Virus record (IMG/VR): IMGVR_UViG_3300033075_000861
Span: 1 to 64,000 of that record
Reading direction: 5' to 3' (one strand)
DNA from: a virus
Taxonomy: Duplodnaviria; Caudoviricetes
DNA length: 64,000 bases
The translations under genes were made by a program, and so were the position numbers. The notes under the pieces were generated by a model that saw only the letters and a list, made by a program, of their open reading frames with translations, made no database searches and was not told the DNA's origin. Of the stretch, positions 7,415 to 43,077 are shown in pieces. The first letter of the stretch is position 1. Each line of letters opens with the position of its first letter.

Positions 7415-8418
7415 CGCCGCACCGCCTCCCGCAGTTGCAGCCACCGCTTGAAGCTCATGCGGGACTCGGGGAAGCCGTGGTACTGGCGGTTCTTGATACG
7501 CCAGTCGTTCTTGATCTTCTTGTACAGTTCCTTGTCTTCCCTGGACTTGCTCGCCTGGTACTGGTTCCAGTACTTGGTCTTGTCCGCCAGGATCTCCTCC
7601 TTGCGGCCTGGGATCGTGCCGATCAGAGGCTCGGGGTCGATCTGGTAGCGGTAAGCCTCAAGGTCCACGAACACGAAGCCAGCCTTGCCCATGTCGTCGG
7701 GAAGGTCCAGTTCGTACATGGCCCAATCCGTCTTGCTGGCCGGGTCGGTGTCCATACGCTCAAACTTGAGCTTGGCGAACAGGGGGTCCATTGCCATGAA
7801 CTCACGCATGAACGGCTCATGGATCTGGAGGGCCTTGTTGTCCGGCACGCGGATGTGGTAGTCGATATCCGCCGGGGCCGTATCAACGGCGGTGCCTGAG
7901 ATCAGCGACCCTGCTGGCATCACGTCCACGTCGTACTTGTCCGCAAGCTGGCTGAGGGCCGCGAAGATTTTCTTGTTCGCCTCATCGACCACCCGCTTCT
8001 TGTCCTGGCTGGACCACTCCTGCGGGTAGTTTGGTGACTCAAACCAGATGGCCGCGTCCTTGTCGCCGTTGCCAGGCGGCGAGACGTACACGCCCTCGTC
8101 GTTGACCCCGGTCTGCTGCTGGATTTGCTGGCGGATCTCGGGAGGGGAAACCATCGCCTTGATGGCCCTGGACGCCTCGTAGAAGCTCGCCGGGTCTTCA
8201 ACGTCAACGAGCCACACCGTGGTCGCCTTGCCGTTGTAGTACTCGATCTGGTTGCGGAGTTGCTGCTGGGAGCGGTCCATGTAGTTGACCGCTTTCTGAA
8301 GCTGCATGATCCTCCGCTTCCGCTTCAGCACCTTGCCCTGGTGCTTCTCGATCCAGCGTTCGACCATGTCCTCCTGGCCCTCGCCAGCAGGCAAGGTCAT
8401 GACGATGACATTAGCCAT
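7411..8418 (-). CDS. Pol-beta superfamily nucleotidyltransferase domain protein
   Basis: AGSLISGTAVDTAPADIDYHI (GS...DxD) plus a distal VFVDL; C-terminal MSFKRWLQLRE. Confidence 0.65.
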   Translation of the reverse strand: MANVIVMTLPAGEGQEDMVERWIEKHQGKVLKRKRRIMQLQKAVNYMDRSQQQLRNQIEYYNGKATTVWLVDVEDPASFYEASRAIKAMVSPPEIRQQIQQQTGVNDEGVYVSPPGNGDKDAAIWFESPNYPQEWSSQDKKRVVDEANKKIFAALSQLADKYDVDVMPAGSLISGTAVDTAPADIDYHIRVPDNKALQIHEPFMREFMAMDPLFAKLKFERMDTDPASKTDWAMYELDLPDDMGKAGFVFVDLEAYRYQIDPEPLIGTIPGRKEEILADKTKYWNQYQASKSREDKELYKKIKNDWRIKNRQYHGFPESRMSFKRWLQLREAVRR

Positions 8419-14865: not shown

Positions 14866-14922
14866 GCTAGACTATATTAGTCTGGCGGAATCCCAGGGGA
14901 AAAGGAAAAGGACACGGTCATC

Positions 14923-36523: not shown

Positions 36524-36567
36524 GTCCTAATGTAGTCAGGGAGATGAAAACCTGCTCTGTATTTCAG

Positions 36568-36639
36568 TGCCACCCCACGGAGTTGAACCGTGGCTCGATG
36601 CTCTTCAGGCATCTGTGCAGACCCCTACACCAGAGTGGC
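36568..36639 (-). tRNA. tRNA-Phe(GAA)
   Basis: GCCACTC/GGGTGGC, GATGC-CTGAAGA-GCATC, GGTTCAA. Confidence 0.85.
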
Positions 36640-36668: not shown

Positions 36669-36753
36669 TGATTCCTGTGGGATTCGATACCCACAAATCC
36701 CTTGCGGGATGCCGACTTTTGAGGTCAGTGTGTTTACTTTACACGAAGGAACC
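36669..36753 (-). tRNA. atypical tRNA-Leu(CAA) inside a bipartite stem cassette (36643-36773)
   Basis: GGTTCCT/AGGAATC, GTGT/ACAC D-stem, CTGAC-CTCAAAA-GTCGG, variable arm ATCCC-GCAA-GGGAT, 8-nt T-loop. Confidence 0.7.
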
Positions 36754-37576: not shown

Positions 37577-37664
37577 TCCGTCTGATTGGTGGGAATCGAA
37601 CCCACAGGGCCTCGCCGGCACGGTGTGCAACCGTTTGACCTGCCAATGTCTACAGCCAGACGGA
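37577..37664 (-). tRNA. atypical class II tRNA with a Tyr-like body, GCA anticodon and extended acceptor stem
   Basis: D-loop ATTGGCAG as in the adjacent tRNA-Tyr; ACGG-TTGCACA-CCGT; GTGGG-TTCGATT-CCCAC. Confidence 0.55.
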
Positions 37665-37751: not shown

Positions 37752-37878
37752 GATGGGTGCAAAGCCCGGCGTAACCGTGCCCTGTCCGAAGTCGGTCAAT
37801 TCATAGTCATCAGCCGCTTTTACGGCAACGCTCCGTTAGCTCCCATATCCACCGGGTTCGGACCCGGAGTTCATCCAG
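37752..37878 (-). ncRNA. unassigned structured RNA candidate between tRNAs
   Basis: Non-coding gap with hairpins (CCGGG-TCCGAA-CCCGG; CCGA/TCGG). Confidence 0.35.
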
Positions 37879-37960
37879 AAACGGCGGTGGGACTCGCACC
37901 CACGGTGGCTTACGCACCGGCTTTGCAGGCCGGCCCCTTCGCTGCTCGGGTCACGCCGTC
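37879..37960 (-). tRNA. tRNA-Cys(GCA) with an enlarged variable region
   Basis: GACGGCG/CGCCGTT, U73, CCGGC-CTGCAAA-GCCGG, ~13-nt variable region, T-loop TGCGAGT. Confidence 0.8.
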
Positions 37961-38339: not shown

Positions 38340-38421
38340 TGTCCGAGGTGGGACTTGCACCCACACGCCCGAAGGCACGGCCCCCTCAAGACCGGGCGTC
38401 TGCTAATTCCGCCACTCGGAC
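38340..38421 (-). tRNA. tRNA-Leu(GAG)
   Basis: GTCCGAG/CTCGGAC, CGGTC-TTGAGGG-GGCCG. Confidence 0.88.
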
Positions 38422-38937
38422 AAGTCGTCTCTTGCGAGACTGATATCTGGCTGTCGTCACTTCGGTCATACCTTGGTCACCAGACCAACCTTCGGTACAA
38501 GCATGGCAGTTAGGGCATAGGAATTGGAGGTTGTCGGAACGGTTGTCGCCCCAATCTCCATTTTTGTGGTTGACTTGTAGCTTCAAGTGTTTGCCATACC
38601 AGCACCCGTTGCAACCACAACCCTCACACTCATACGTTCGTCCAGACTCGATGAGGGCACGTCTGAGAACGTATGGTTTCTCTCTCCAATCTCGTTCCTC
38701 CTTGATCAGGATGGTCGTCCAATGCCTCTTGTCGGGACCGCCCCTGTGTGACTCGCCGCTGTTAGCACGTTGTCCCAGCATGTGGCTGGTGTCGAGGTTG
38801 TACCGCTTGATCCACCGGACGATGTTCTGCTGAGTACCGCCAGACCATTTGACGCCCAGCTTTTTGATGACCTCGGCAATCGACACCGAGTCGCGGACCA
38901 GAGGCTCCAACAGTTCTTTGGTGTATTTCCTTCGCAT
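38386..38937 (-). CDS. HNH homing endonuclease
   Basis: YECEGC...LQVNHKNGDWGDNRSDNLQFLCPNCH; the stop lies inside tRNA-Leu(GAG). Confidence 0.85.
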   Translation of the reverse strand: MRRKYTKELLEPLVRDSVSIAEVIKKLGVKWSGGTQQNIVRWIKRYNLDTSHMLGQRANSGESHRGGPDKRHWTTILIKEERDWREKPYVLRRALIESGRTYECEGCGCNGCWYGKHLKLQVNHKNGDWGDNRSDNLQFLCPNCHACTEGWSGDQGMTEVTTARYQSRKRRLVRVAELADARS

Positions 38938-39007
38938 GCCCCTAGTAGAGTCATGCGTCATCAAATTGGGCAAGTCTACTTCACTTGTTTTCCATCCTAG
39001 CCTCCAG

Positions 39008-39089
39008 TGGTCATGGTGGGAGTCGAACCCACACCCCCGTAGGGAACGGCTTCTGAAACCGTCGCGTTTACCAGTTACGCCACATGACC
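39008..39089 (-). tRNA. tRNA-Leu(CAG)
   Basis: GGTCATG/CATGACC, ACGGT-TTCAGAA-GCCGT. Confidence 0.92.
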
Positions 39090-39620
39090 TACAGTGTCGA
39101 GGGCGGGATTTGAACCCGCACGCCGATTAAGGCACCCGCTTCTAAGGCGAGCATGGCTGCCAGTTACATCACCTCGACATGGTTTTTGACTGTGACAGTT
39201 AGGGCAGAGGAATCTGAGGTTACCTGGGGTGTTGTCGAGCCAGTCCTCGTTTACATGATCGACCTCTAGGATGATCTCTTTCTTCTGCCACTCACAGATG
39301 CCACAGTCTTCGCACTTGTATTTCCTGCCTGACTCAATCAGGGCACGTCGTAACCGACTAGCCTGAACCCTGTTTTGAACGCCTTGCTTGCGAACAAGCA
39401 CCTCTTCCCACGACTTCTTGTTGGAGCCGTGCCACTGCTTGAGCTTGTCGTAATGAGGGGCGAAGTGGGATATGTCTATCCCGGCTCTCACGATACGCTT
39501 CTTGATGTGGGCGTAGTTGCCGCCACTTAGCCTGATGCCCAACTGGGTCATCACGTCCGTCATGGAGTTGCTTTCACGAACAACCGCCATGAGTCGCTCG
39601 TCGGTGTACTTGTATCTCAT
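39075..39620 (-). CDS. HNH homing endonuclease (paralog of 38386-38937)
   Basis: YKCEDC...LEVDHVNEDWLDNTPGNLRFLCPNCH; the ORF reads through tRNA-Leu(TAG). Confidence 0.85.
   Translation of the reverse strand: MRYKYTDERLMAVVRESNSMTDVMTQLGIRLSGGNYAHIKKRIVRAGIDISHFAPHYDKLKQWHGSNKKSWEEVLVRKQGVQNRVQASRLRRALIESGRKYKCEDCGICEWQKKEIILEVDHVNEDWLDNTPGNLRFLCPNCHSQKPCRGDVTGSHARLRSGCLNRRAGSNPALDTVGHVA
39095..39178 (-). tRNA. tRNA-Leu(TAG)
   Basis: GTCGAGG/CCTCGAC, CTCGC-CTTAGAA-GCGGG. Confidence 0.9.
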
Positions 39621-39671
39621 ACCGGATTGTAGGAGACACGCTTTTGCACGACCAGCAGGTTTGCCAGACAG

Positions 39672-39758
39672 CGGAATGCGAGAGAATCGAACTCTCCTCC
39701 CCTTGCGGGGAACCTGGGTTCGGGCCAGGCCCAGCCAACCAATATCTGGCTGCATTCC
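39672..39758 (-). tRNA. tRNA-Ser(CGA)
   Basis: GGAATGC/GCATTCC, G73, CCTGG-CCCGAAC-CCAGG (C33 atypical). Confidence 0.8.
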
Positions 39759-39763
39759 GTAAA

Positions 39764-39884
39764 TGGTGCAGGGAGCAGGGTTTTCACCTGCGAGTGGACG
39801 GCACCTATCCGTCATAGTCGCCGGCAACCATACGGCTACCGTCTGTCTAACGCTCTTGCGTCCAAGGCTTCCGACTTCCCCTGC
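39764..39884 (-). ncRNA. tRNA-like RNA with encoded CCA and a large D-loop insertion
   Basis: GCAGGGG/TCCCTGC-A-CCA, T-arm GCAGG-TGAAAAC-CCTGC, D-stem GTCG/CGAC enclosing two hairpins, non-canonical anticodon loop. Confidence 0.6.
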
Positions 39885-40522: not shown

Positions 40523-40596
40523 TGCCGCCCCACGGAGTTGAACCGTGACCCCTAGGGTTTCAAGCTAGTGTGCAGACACCCCTACACCAGAGCGGC
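40523..40596 (-). tRNA. tRNA-Phe(GAA), paralog of 36568-36639
   Basis: GCCGCTC/GGGCGGC, CTAG(C)-TTGAAAC-(C)CTAG. Confidence 0.75.
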
Positions 40597-40670
40597 ATGT
40601 CATTTCTCGGTCTAGTGCTTCTTGGTGAAGGCCAACATGGATCTCAACATCCTGGCAAACGATGCCTACG

Positions 40671-40717
40671 AAAAAGAAGAACCCCCGCCAGGCCGGTTTG
40701 GCCTGGCGGGGGTTCTT
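40671..40717 (-). terminator. strong terminator/attenuator upstream of the tRNA operon
   Basis: 18-bp stem AAGAACCCCCGCCAGGCC-AAACC-GGCCTGGCGGGGGTTCTT then CTTTTT. Confidence 0.8.
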
Positions 40718-40746
40718 ACAACCGCTGGTGTAAGATCCGCTTTAGC

Positions 40747-40833
40747 TCAAACCGCAAGCCGATCAAGGCCGCTGAGAAACAGCGACGACAACAGGCAGAG
40801 GCTATACAGCAAGCAAGCGGAGAAGGAAATCAC
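40747..40833 (-). CDS. putative leader peptide MISFSACLLYSLCLLSSLFLSGLDRLAV
   Basis: GTG 8 nt after GGAG; sits between a promoter and a terminator; S/F/C/L/Y-rich. Confidence 0.6.
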   Translation of the reverse strand: MISFSACLLYSLCLLSSLFLSGLDRLAV

Positions 40834-40923
40834 GGATGTAGCTCCGAGGATGTCTCTTGTTCTCTTATCGGCCAGCGGGAACTCTCCCGAGGCTCGGATG
40901 AGGGCACTAGGCCCTACATCCCT

Positions 40924-40951
40924 AATATAGCCAGGTCGCCTCAGTTTTCAA
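40924..40951 (-). promoter_or_regulatory. promoter of the leader/tRNA operon
   Basis: TTGAAA-N16-TATATT with the same spacing as the other promoters. Confidence 0.6.
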
Positions 40952-40975
40952 CCCCAGATTTCCGAAAAATCTGGA

Positions 40976-41938
40976 TCAGCCTGGGAAGACCTCTTTCACC
41001 GTCTGGACGCTGCCCTCACCGACCGTCTTGAGGTTGGTGAACTTGTCCGTGCCGGCCTGGTCCGCGAGGTGCTTGTCCTTCATGTTGAACCAGGGGCCGT
41101 AGTAGTCCTCGCACGCCTTCGGCAACGGGGGCATTGGCAGGCCGGTGATCTGGGTGAACCCGACCGCATCCACCAGATAGACAGCGGTGAACGCGGAAGG
41201 TTCACTCTTCCACACGGAAATCCCGTAGGGGTCCGGGTAGACCTTCTGATCGATCTGCCCGCCCTTGCCCACGCCCATCTCCACCGCCTTGCTCACCGAC
41301 CTGCTGGCCGAGGCCGGCCCGGCTGCCGCACACGCGAAGGACATCGCCTCCAATCCGCCGCAGCACTCGTAGTCGGACGACTCAAGCCCGCCGCTGAAGC
41401 CGTAGTGGCTGGGGGTGTGGACCGGACGGGGGAACGCCGTGGCGGGGTCGCTCGCCTCAAACACGGCGATGCCCAGACCGCCGGTCTTGCAGTCCTCGCC
41501 GTGCATCTGTTCGCCCACGGTCAGGCCCTCGCCCTTCTCGTACTTCGTGGACACGAACTGGAACACGGTGCCGTCGTCGCCTTTCCAGCCGTCGAGCCAG
41601 GGTTGGGGCGGGCTGACGACGTAGCCATCTTCCTCCAGCCTCAGGCCGAGCTTCTTGCCGTTGACCGCGTTGACGCCGCCGGCCCCGATGAGCATGGCGA
41701 CCGGGTGGCCCTTGGAGCCGAAGCTCATCCACATCGCCTCGGCGTCGTGCATCGCCAGGAAGTAGCCGTTCTCGTCCCAGCCGGCAGGACAGGCGTCTTT
41801 GTAGTCGGCCACCTTATACAGCGTGAAGTGCCCCAGGCTGGGCGGCAGGCTGCTGACCTCGCCCTCCTTCACGCGGACGGTGCGGTGGAAGGTGACGCGG
41901 ACGGGGCCGAGGTCGAGGCTGGCGAGATTATCGCTCAT
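40976..41938 (-). CDS. conserved protein of unknown function
   Basis: LPPSLGHF...EAMWMSF...VNAVNG...PQPWLDG...FQFV. Confidence 0.75.
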   Translation of the reverse strand: MSDNLASLDLGPVRVTFHRTVRVKEGEVSSLPPSLGHFTLYKVADYKDACPAGWDENGYFLAMHDAEAMWMSFGSKGHPVAMLIGAGGVNAVNGKKLGLRLEEDGYVVSPPQPWLDGWKGDDGTVFQFVSTKYEKGEGLTVGEQMHGEDCKTGGLGIAVFEASDPATAFPRPVHTPSHYGFSGGLESSDYECCGGLEAMSFACAAAGPASASRSVSKAVEMGVGKGGQIDQKVYPDPYGISVWKSEPSAFTAVYLVDAVGFTQITGLPMPPLPKACEDYYGPWFNMKDKHLADQAGTDKFTNLKTVGEGSVQTVKEVFPG

Positions 41939-42037
41939 GTTTTCTCCTTGAGGGTTAGAGTTCGGCCAGTAGTGCCTCTCCTCGTCGCCTTGGCCGCGAG
42001 GCAGCACGAATTGATCCAGTACATCCTAAATAAGGCA

Positions 42038-42507: not shown

Positions 42508-43077
42508 ATGGAAAAGAAGAAATGCTCTCGGTGCGAGAAGAAGCTCGACCTGAACCAGTTTGCACGGTACTCCAAGTCTAAGGACGGGCGACAAGGCTAT
42601 TGCAAGGTGTGCCAGCGGGAGGTTCAGAAAGAGTACATCAGCAAGAACAGGGCCGAACTGAATCGCAAGCGGCAGGAATGGAGAGAAGCACATCCTGGGC
42701 GGGACGCCCTGGCTCAGAAGAAGTGGAAAGAGGCCAACCCTGAGCTTCACACCAAGCACTGGAAAGGGTACAACCTGAGGCGGCGTCTCAAAGTGCTGAG
42801 ATGCGTCTCGGACAGTCTTGTCTGCGTCCGTTGCGGCTGCGATAGGACAGAACTGCTTGAGATAAACCACAAGAACGGCGGCGGTCGTCAAGAGATGAAG
42901 AATGGAAGCTCAAAGTTCCACGCGGCGATCCTGAAAGGAACACGTTCGGTGGACGACCTTGAGCTTCTATGCAAGGTGTGCAACACGCTGCACTACGTCG
43001 AAATGAAGTACGGGCCGCTACCCTACACACTAACCTGGGGTCCATCCGATGGCGAAGAAAGTCAAGACCACGTCTGA
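42508..43077 (+). CDS. HNH homing endonuclease with an N-terminal Zn ribbon
   Basis: KCSRC...YCKVC; CVRCG...EINHKNGGG...LLCKVCN. Confidence 0.8.
   Translation: MEKKKCSRCEKKLDLNQFARYSKSKDGRQGYCKVCQREVQKEYISKNRAELNRKRQEWREAHPGRDALAQKKWKEANPELHTKHWKGYNLRRRLKVLRCVSDSLVCVRCGCDRTELLEINHKNGGGRQEMKNGSSKFHAAILKGTRSVDDLELLCKVCNTLHYVEMKYGPLPYTLTWGPSDGEESQDHV

Follow-up and report, generated by a model that had tools for sequence, protein, structure and literature searches.

In the enterobacterial ilvGMEDA, thr, leu, his, trp and pheA leaders, a short open reading frame (ORF) enriched in the sensed codons runs into a hairpin, 1:2, to which its own end contributes, with an intrinsic terminator immediately after. 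The position of the stop codon allows a ribosome that terminates there to cover region 2, and a single leader may respond to several amino acids, as those of ilv and thr do. In the full-text literature we found attenuation of this kind for amino-acid, synthetase, resistance and similar genes, and found no leader-peptide control of transfer RNA (tRNA) genes. The regulation of phage tRNA genes is largely unknown, and their arrays are usually viewed as constitutive codon-usage helpers. Here we describe a cassette on the minus strand of a 64-kb stretch of viral DNA (the window, positions 1 to 64,000 of IMG/VR record IMGVR_UViG_3300033075_000861) that is probably, judging from sequence comparison and predicted folding, a leader-peptide transcription attenuator, mediated by the ribosome, that places a tRNA array under feedback control. 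The whole record is 84 kb long and has a CheckV completeness of 17%, and is therefore a fragment of a huge phage; the G+C content of the window is about 0.61.

Read along the minus strand, the locus consists of a promoter-like site, TTGAAA-16-TATATT (40951-40924), a leader ORF of 28 codons with a GTG start (40833-40747, its TGA stop at 40749-40747), an intrinsic terminator (40717-40671) and then a tRNA array of about 6 kb. The terminator, which we designate pairing 3:4, has an 18-pair stem at 40717-40677 with 13 G-C pairs, a 5-nucleotide (nt) loop and a T run reaching 40671, while GGAG at 40845-40842 lies 8 nt upstream of the GTG at 40833. A reading of this DNA made from the letters alone (the sequence-only reading) had proposed this promoter, ORF and terminator, and each of the three elements is present on the minus strand as it described them.

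The gene immediately upstream (40976-42007, minus strand) encodes a protein of 343 residues that has no Pfam, PHROG or PDB match. It anchors the synteny of the region, preceding the leader cassette in relatives, and its homologues (35-55% identity) were used to retrieve related loci from viral contigs, metagenomes and GenBank. After the homologue of this gene, the same cassette followed by a tRNA array was found in eleven contigs or records, which represent ten distinct sequences; in some of the relatives a small gene intervenes between the homologue and the downstream elements. The cassette-bearing relatives are the contigs that we label L003, L009, L010/L013, L011/L012, L014, L070, L078, L079 and L088, together with GenBank LR756511.1 (595 kb), a public complete genome that carries one member. 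An nhmmer search with the ten-sequence alignment found the members at E-values of 1e-22 to 1e-42 and, among the other loci collected at that time, just one partial copy (L008), cut by the contig end. A loose DNA pattern scan of viral contigs returned about 119 chance matches and one true member, its score identical to that of L010/L013. The cassette occurs in no cultured relative in the phage database, in which the virus Rctr197k carries the upstream gene with no adjacent array.

Across the family the leader ORF is 21-29 codons long, and the frame and the positions of the start and stop codons are conserved. The start codon is GTG in eight and ATG in two of the ten aligned leaders, each preceded by a Shine-Dalgarno-like AAGGA. 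The stop codon always adjoins a conserved GC..(A)GCGG motif and keeps a fixed position relative to the terminator, and a G+C-rich stem with a T run comes directly after the leader hairpin in all 11 members of the window's family. Of the peptide itself, only the composition and the segments encoded within RNA stems are conserved. All ten aligned leaders have an open sense frame, and the antisense frames each carry 1-6 stops in all nine relatives. That short ORFs matched to their arrays should be sought in related phages had been suggested from the sequence alone, and what these relatives have ahead of their arrays is a homologous ORF and terminator, the amino-acid make-up of the ORF tracking the array.

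In the window's leader, 20 of the 27 codons after the start encode Ser, Leu, Tyr, Cys or Phe, and the count for codons 3-21 is 18 of 19, just as the sequence-only reading had claimed. Codons that the array can decode have a background frequency of 21%, which gives a binomial probability of 7e-9, a value that overstates the case, as the leader's score is attained at three positions, its own included, when all six frames of the 64 kb are considered. The enrichment is specific to the frame (0.74 in frame 0, 0.50 and 0.35 in the other two), and dinucleotide shuffles of the ORF body average 0.52 (P = 0.001). The relatives' arrays hold Ser, Leu and Tyr tRNAs only, over 20-35 kb, and their leaders are 54-62% Ser, Leu and Tyr. 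In 11 of 11 leaders frame 0 stands far above the other two frames and above dinucleotide shuffles (P <= 0.017 each); the composition is therefore not a base-composition effect. Pro, Lys and Met account for none of the 279 residues pooled from eleven leaders. Where codons in an alignment column are one nucleotide apart, membership of the Ser/Leu/Tyr set is kept in 78% of cases, against 37% expected, in an alignment that was guided by the peptide.

Differences in array content are also reflected in the leaders. Cys codons make up 2 of 27 in the window, whose array has two tRNAs with a Cys anticodon, and 1 of 199 elsewhere (P = 0.04). Gln codons make up 4 of 25 in a leader on contig L007, where the array includes tRNA-Gln(CTG) and tRNA-Gln(TTG), and 1 of 201 elsewhere (P = 5e-4). 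The leaders of the AT-rich relatives sample all of the anticodons in their arrays, from 8 of 8 to 10 of 10 under strict pairing (P = 0.01-0.06 each, by synonymous resampling).

Three further leaders deserve description. The L007 leader (L007:86-166) is analogous to that of the window, being rich in Ser, Leu, Tyr and Gln codons; it has a perfect TTGACA-17-TATAAT promoter and is followed by an array at L007:253-1193. Its ORF folds into a long spanning hairpin (z = -3.3), after which comes an alternative long hairpin with no U-tract terminator, and the output of its switch may differ from that of the window's. On contig L065, just 13 nt separate a 27-codon ORF (about 260-343), which contains codons for Ser, Leu, Cys, Tyr and Trp, from an array (354-830) whose tRNAs are those for Ser, Tyr, Trp, Cys and Ser. 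Neither a terminator nor significant structure was found for this ORF, which uses six different Leu codons; no Leu tRNA is seen on the 4.2-kb contig. The relative whose upstream protein is nearest to that of the window, L003, has its cassette at 7446-7529. A-first codons abound in its leader (AGY for Ser, all four for Thr, and those for Ile, Lys and Asn), and its array, as far as the contig end, consists of Ser(GCT) and Ile(TAT), beyond which tRNAs for Thr, Lys and Asn would be predicted.

The leader RNA is predicted to fold into a long imperfect hairpin, 1:2 (40821-40736, with an apical hairpin at 40786-40768), with a minimum free energy (MFE) of -35.3 kcal/mol and z = -3.8. In the window, one strand of it is formed by roughly codons 5-12 of the ORF, and the other by the last part of the ORF together with the stop codon and the AGCGGA motif that follows it. 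The same architecture is found in 10 of 10 homologues, starting near codon 5, extending some 10 nt beyond the stop and ending no more than about 20 nt from the terminator stem, and the hairpin has z-scores of -2 to -5 in nine of the ten (mean -3.4). In the alignment 78% of the cells assigned to the hairpin are paired, a share that drops to 28-40% if the partners are slid, and all but 8 of 500 shuffles have a lower covariation score. The terminator likewise keeps 10 of 13 pairs through two-sided changes. RNAalifold run on MAFFT alignments recovered the terminator and the apical hairpin and nothing else.

The last codon, the stop codon and the post-stop GC..GCGG (40753-40738) form region 2, which has two possible partners, region 1 and the 5' arm and loop of the terminator. 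When the 5' strand of the hairpin was masked, as by a ribosome stalled at codons 8-16, and the 3' arm of the terminator was omitted, the stop-proximal strand paired with the terminator's 5' arm and loop in 10 of 10 sequences, with the same nested topology. With the ribosome placed at the stop codon, masking the RNA to 12 nt past the stop, the terminator alone folds; region 2 overlaps the stop codon and the next 10 or so nucleotides, so that in this model it would be masked by the terminating ribosome. A 2:3 antiterminator is therefore plausible in the folding model. The complementarity between the leader end and the terminator arm that the sequence-only reading had pointed out has fared accordingly in part: the predicted topology is the same in all ten, and the duplex itself does not rise above shuffles (see below).

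We infer from these arrangements translation of the ORF, ribosome stalling, the 2:3 antiterminator, conditional read-through, the trigger and the feedback. Transcription would begin at the promoter at 40951-40924, and a ribosome would load at the GGAG and GTG and translate the 28-codon leader, three-quarters of which is Ser, Leu, Tyr, Cys or Phe codons. If these were read quickly, the ribosome would reach the stop codon and cover region 2, the 18-bp (base pair) terminator would form, and the array would be off. If the charged tRNAs were short, the ribosome would stall on region 1, the 5' strand of the hairpin, and the freed region 2 would pair with the 5' arm and loop of the terminator, letting the polymerase continue through a tRNA-Phe, a boxA-like element and some 6 kb of tRNA genes. 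The new tRNAs would then end the stall, giving negative feedback. Possible triggers include a shortage of host tRNAs, codon mismatch and tRNA-cleaving defences.

The sequence of the transcript past the terminator is of interest here. The first gene met is a Phe(GAA)-like tRNA (40596-40523, minus strand; Rfam, 46.5 bits) with one mismatch in the anticodon stem, which was missed by ARAGORN at default settings and which by comparison reads as a paralogue of the tRNA-Phe at 36567-36639. Next comes a small hairpin (40521-40501) and then the boxA-like element TGTTCTTTGACAA (40502-40490), which appears to resemble the boxA of rrn operons and the E. coli consensus, with binding of NusB/NusE putative. 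Elements of the type TCTTTGA[CA]AA follow the leader terminator in every relative. The 13-nt sequence GGCGACAACTACC (40486-40474) has its exact complement at 34668-34656, directly ahead of the array-closing terminator (34653-34622; a strong one, with a 13-pair stem and a T-rich tail); for this 13-bp bracketing stem there are 3 matches against 0.07 expected. The promoter-like site upstream of the leader is the sole sigma70-like match within 34-43 kb. Together, the boxA-like element, the bracketing stem and the absence of any other sigma70-like promoter in that interval argue for a single long array transcript that begins upstream of the leader.

The -10 region of the promoter-like site, CTATATTA, resembles a motif also present upstream of the relatives' leaders, where TATATTA stands before the ribosome-binding site (RBS). 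CTATATTA occurs twice in the window, at 14872-14879 (plus strand) and 40923-40930 (minus strand), against 0.04 copies expected, and both copies are intergenic, right after a stop codon and about 45-90 nt ahead of a start codon. CTATATTA is a candidate for a phage-specific promoter that consists of a -10 box only. The 5' untranslated region (UTR; 40917-40834, its start set from the -10 box) has no significant structure (z = -1.3). The sequence-only reading had proposed that the 5' end of the transcript locks the RBS by pairing over it. This lock is absent from the predicted MFE structure of the 5' UTR, its 5' half would map no further downstream than the likely start of transcription, and no lock is present in the relatives, whose leaders are short; we have dropped it.

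Other arrays serve as controls. The scoring pipeline takes all short ORFs in the 450 nt that precede a tRNA block, and it puts the leader first for both of the class II (long-variable-arm) arrays on which it was run, at 7e-9 for the window and 8e-6 for LR756511.1. For thirty class I tRNA blocks of LR756511.1 there was no matched leader, the best score being 7e-5 and the remainder at least 5e-3. That best score belongs to a 12-codon ORF near 278287-278325 (minus strand) with five Met codons including the start, some 260 nt upstream of a tRNA-Met at 278024; this match may be chance. The other arrays in G006, G007 and G009 yielded no convincing leader. A 49-codon ORF in G006, rich in Ala, Ser, Gly and Arg, matches an array for Arg, Ser, Gly, Ala, Trp and Cys and was not counted, because G+C-rich frames yield such peptides easily. 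The idea that leaders of this kind also precede arrays for other amino acids thus found no backing in G006, G007, G009 or the thirty class I blocks. Among the arrays examined, the match between leader and array is specific to the clade's long-variable-arm array.

Several results weigh against reading the cassette as an attenuator of the tRNA array. The 2:3 duplex is no stronger than dinucleotide shuffles (mean z = -0.46; z = -1.3 in the window), and no column-wise covariation was found for it. The terminator, with the post-stop segment, comes to about -42 kcal/mol against about -23 for the alternative fold, which bears out the caution already voiced in the sequence-only reading that the terminator far outweighs the antiterminator in stability. 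Base composition accounts for part of the enrichment in the window, given the shuffle mean of 0.52, and two further places in the window equal the leader's codon score. Phe codons show no association with Phe tRNAs (P = 0.39); one Phe codon is kept in relatives that have no Phe tRNA because it adjoins the base of the conserved stem. The nine anticodons said to be sampled by the window's leader fall within what synonymous resampling gives (P = 0.27 with wobble, 0.72 strict), so that isoacceptor sampling in the window is at chance level given the peptide. Hence, of the claim that the leader mirrors five array specificities, the part concerning Ser, Leu, Tyr and Cys stands, and Phe matching and isoacceptor sampling do not. 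The analogues in L007 and L065 have no intrinsic terminator, the relatives' class I arrays have no leaders, which speaks against a general rule for phage tRNA arrays, and there may be phage-specific promoters inside the array. Taking both sides together, the attenuator first proposed from the sequence draws its support from the conserved cassette and the array-tracking composition, and has lost the RBS lock and the matching of Phe and of isoacceptors.

The lack of statistical support for 2:3 pairing also bears on a different arrangement, in which the leader is a translated sensor that acts on the access of Rho, on processing by RNase or on how the 5' end of the array transcript folds, the hairpin and T run serving mainly as a stabiliser or partial stop. 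The L007 and L065 leaders, which end 13-90 nt before the first tRNA with no U-tract terminator, would fit such a device, as would the alternative long hairpins of L007, and a role for Rho and antitermination in this untranslated operon is suggested by the boxA-like element past the terminator. We nevertheless consider such an output unlikely in the window's family, all 11 members of which keep a canonical stem and T run with compensatory changes, and in which the position of the stop codon is fixed relative to the terminator.

A promoter, a short ORF and a strong terminator also make a complete transcription unit, and the great stability of the terminator could be taken to mean that the cassette is an independent small gene, for a peptide or a small RNA, with the array transcribed from promoters of its own that, if phage-specific, a sigma70 scan would miss. 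This seems to us distinctly improbable, although not absurd, as the peptide is not conserved beyond its composition and the parts in RNA stems, and the composition tracks array content across lineages. Nor is there a sigma70-like promoter after the terminator; the TTGACA-like element found past the terminator in relatives is too near the first tRNA for a -35 box and reads as boxA-like instead.

The sequence-only reading had itself raised a type I toxin as an alternative, and a toxin or small membrane peptide with a structured mRNA would account for two properties of the window, namely a highly structured mRNA and a peptide as hydrophobic as a membrane helix (best 19-residue Kyte-Doolittle mean 2.0). 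That hydrophobicity is confined to the window's peptide, however, the relatives' values being below 1.4 (0.3-1.3) and those of L003 and L007 at or below zero; the RBS lock is neither predicted nor present in relatives, and the sigma70 scan found no antisense promoter, leaving a toxin very improbable. Just as improbable is a chance feature or antisense shadow, with the terminator simply ending the 343-residue gene and the plus-strand ORF at 40570-41031, if any, the real frame: that 153-residue frame is open in the window, and two other places there equal the codon score, but it has no Pfam match and would cross both promoter and terminator, all ten leaders keep an open sense frame and all nine relatives have stops in the antisense frames, and the frame-specific enrichment recurs in 11 homologues, so that we reject the plus-strand gene that the sequence-only reading had named among the findings that would refute the leader.

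The array itself runs from 40437 down to 34737 on the minus strand. ARAGORN detected 15 tRNAs in it, all of them Ser, Leu, Tyr, Cys-anticodon or Phe, and Rfam adds two, for 17 tRNA or tRNA-like genes: the Phe-like gene at 40523-40596 and a degenerate Leu(CAA)-like tRNA at 36669-36753 (minus strand). Annotated by type, the array comprises Ser x4, Leu x8 (one degenerate), Tyr x2, Cys-anticodon x2 and Phe x1, with the second Phe-like gene upstream and HNH genes interspersed; the specificities are those that had been claimed for it. Two paralogous HNH endonuclease genes (phrog_10822) sit between the tRNAs, at 38386-38973 and 39075-39827 (minus strand). In the clade, the array behind the leader is made up of long-variable-arm tRNAs only (Leu, Ser, Tyr) over 20-35 kb, as seen in L009-L014, L016, L018-L020, L070, L079, L088 and L245; LR756511.1 has its class I tRNAs in a separate region, at 233-291 kb. 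In the window the only additions are Phe and Cys-anticodon tRNAs, which give it readers of all T-first codons except Trp, plus CTN-Leu and AGY-Ser.

The Cys-anticodon (GCA) tRNAs, at 37580-37659 and 37878-37960 (minus strand), have variable regions of 12-13 nt, an uncommon length in tRNA-Cys. The D arm of the 80-nt gene matches that of the neighbouring tRNA-Tyr, its discriminator is A and its acceptor stem is mismatched, so that it looks from its sequence like a Tyr-derived copy; the 83-nt one has discriminator T. In a related phage, at L005:2955-3214 (the same as L024 and L052), an amber-reading CTA tRNA lies beside a tRNA for which ARAGORN reports a four-base anticodon, CCTA. As for the surroundings of the cassette, homologues of the 343-residue protein occur in more than 240 metagenomic loci, with PPQPWLDGWK and GKGG invariant, and often adjoin tRNA arrays, and an endonuclease VII/HNH-like gene is found upstream of the cassette at 42508-43077 (plus strand).

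On balance we favour the broader proposal that this huge-phage clade carries a homeostatic sensor of tRNA supply, in which one leader polls all of the Ser, Leu and Tyr isoacceptors (with Cys and Phe in the window) and opens the terminator, so that the class II array is made only when decoding is too slow. The limit of the clade's arrays to Leu, Ser and Tyr tRNAs points to a specific pressure on the long-variable-arm class, and a host nuclease attacking such tRNAs is one possible cause of slow decoding. If the proposal is correct, this would be the first leader-peptide attenuation that acts on tRNA genes themselves, widening classical attenuation from amino-acid and synthetase genes to tRNA genes and turning tRNA arrays into a feedback-controlled, demand-driven supply. 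It would also provide a compact natural sensor of decoding speed for several codon families at once.

How the cassette relates to described systems can be set out feature by feature. With ribosomal RNA operons it shares a putative boxA-like element after the attenuator and a stem, here of 13 bp, that brackets the whole untranslated array, although these features concern elongation and processing downstream rather than the switch, and NusB/NusE binding and RNase III cleavage are putative in the phage. T-box riboswitches likewise make read-through of a terminator conditional on tRNA charging; they do so by binding uncharged tRNA directly, with no ORF, and their targets are synthetase and biosynthesis genes, and an Rfam scan of 34-42 kb (E <= 1) found no T-box or other known leader family in the window. 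The enterobacterial leaders described at the outset resemble the cassette in the enriched ORF, the 1:2 hairpin, the adjacent terminator, the placement of the stop codon and the proposed sensing of several amino acids by one leader. They differ in that they control biosynthetic enzymes, and so the supply of amino acids, whereas the phage cassette would control tRNA genes, and so the supply of tRNAs; the phage antiterminator is a predicted one, and the phage codons, behind a GTG start, occupy some 16 scattered positions and belong to several isoacceptor families, with no tight run. Closest in what is regulated is the pheST attenuator of E. coli, with its pheM leader, where a component of the translation apparatus is controlled by the level of charged tRNA: the target there is one synthetase for one amino acid, and here it would be the tRNAs themselves, for three to five amino acids.

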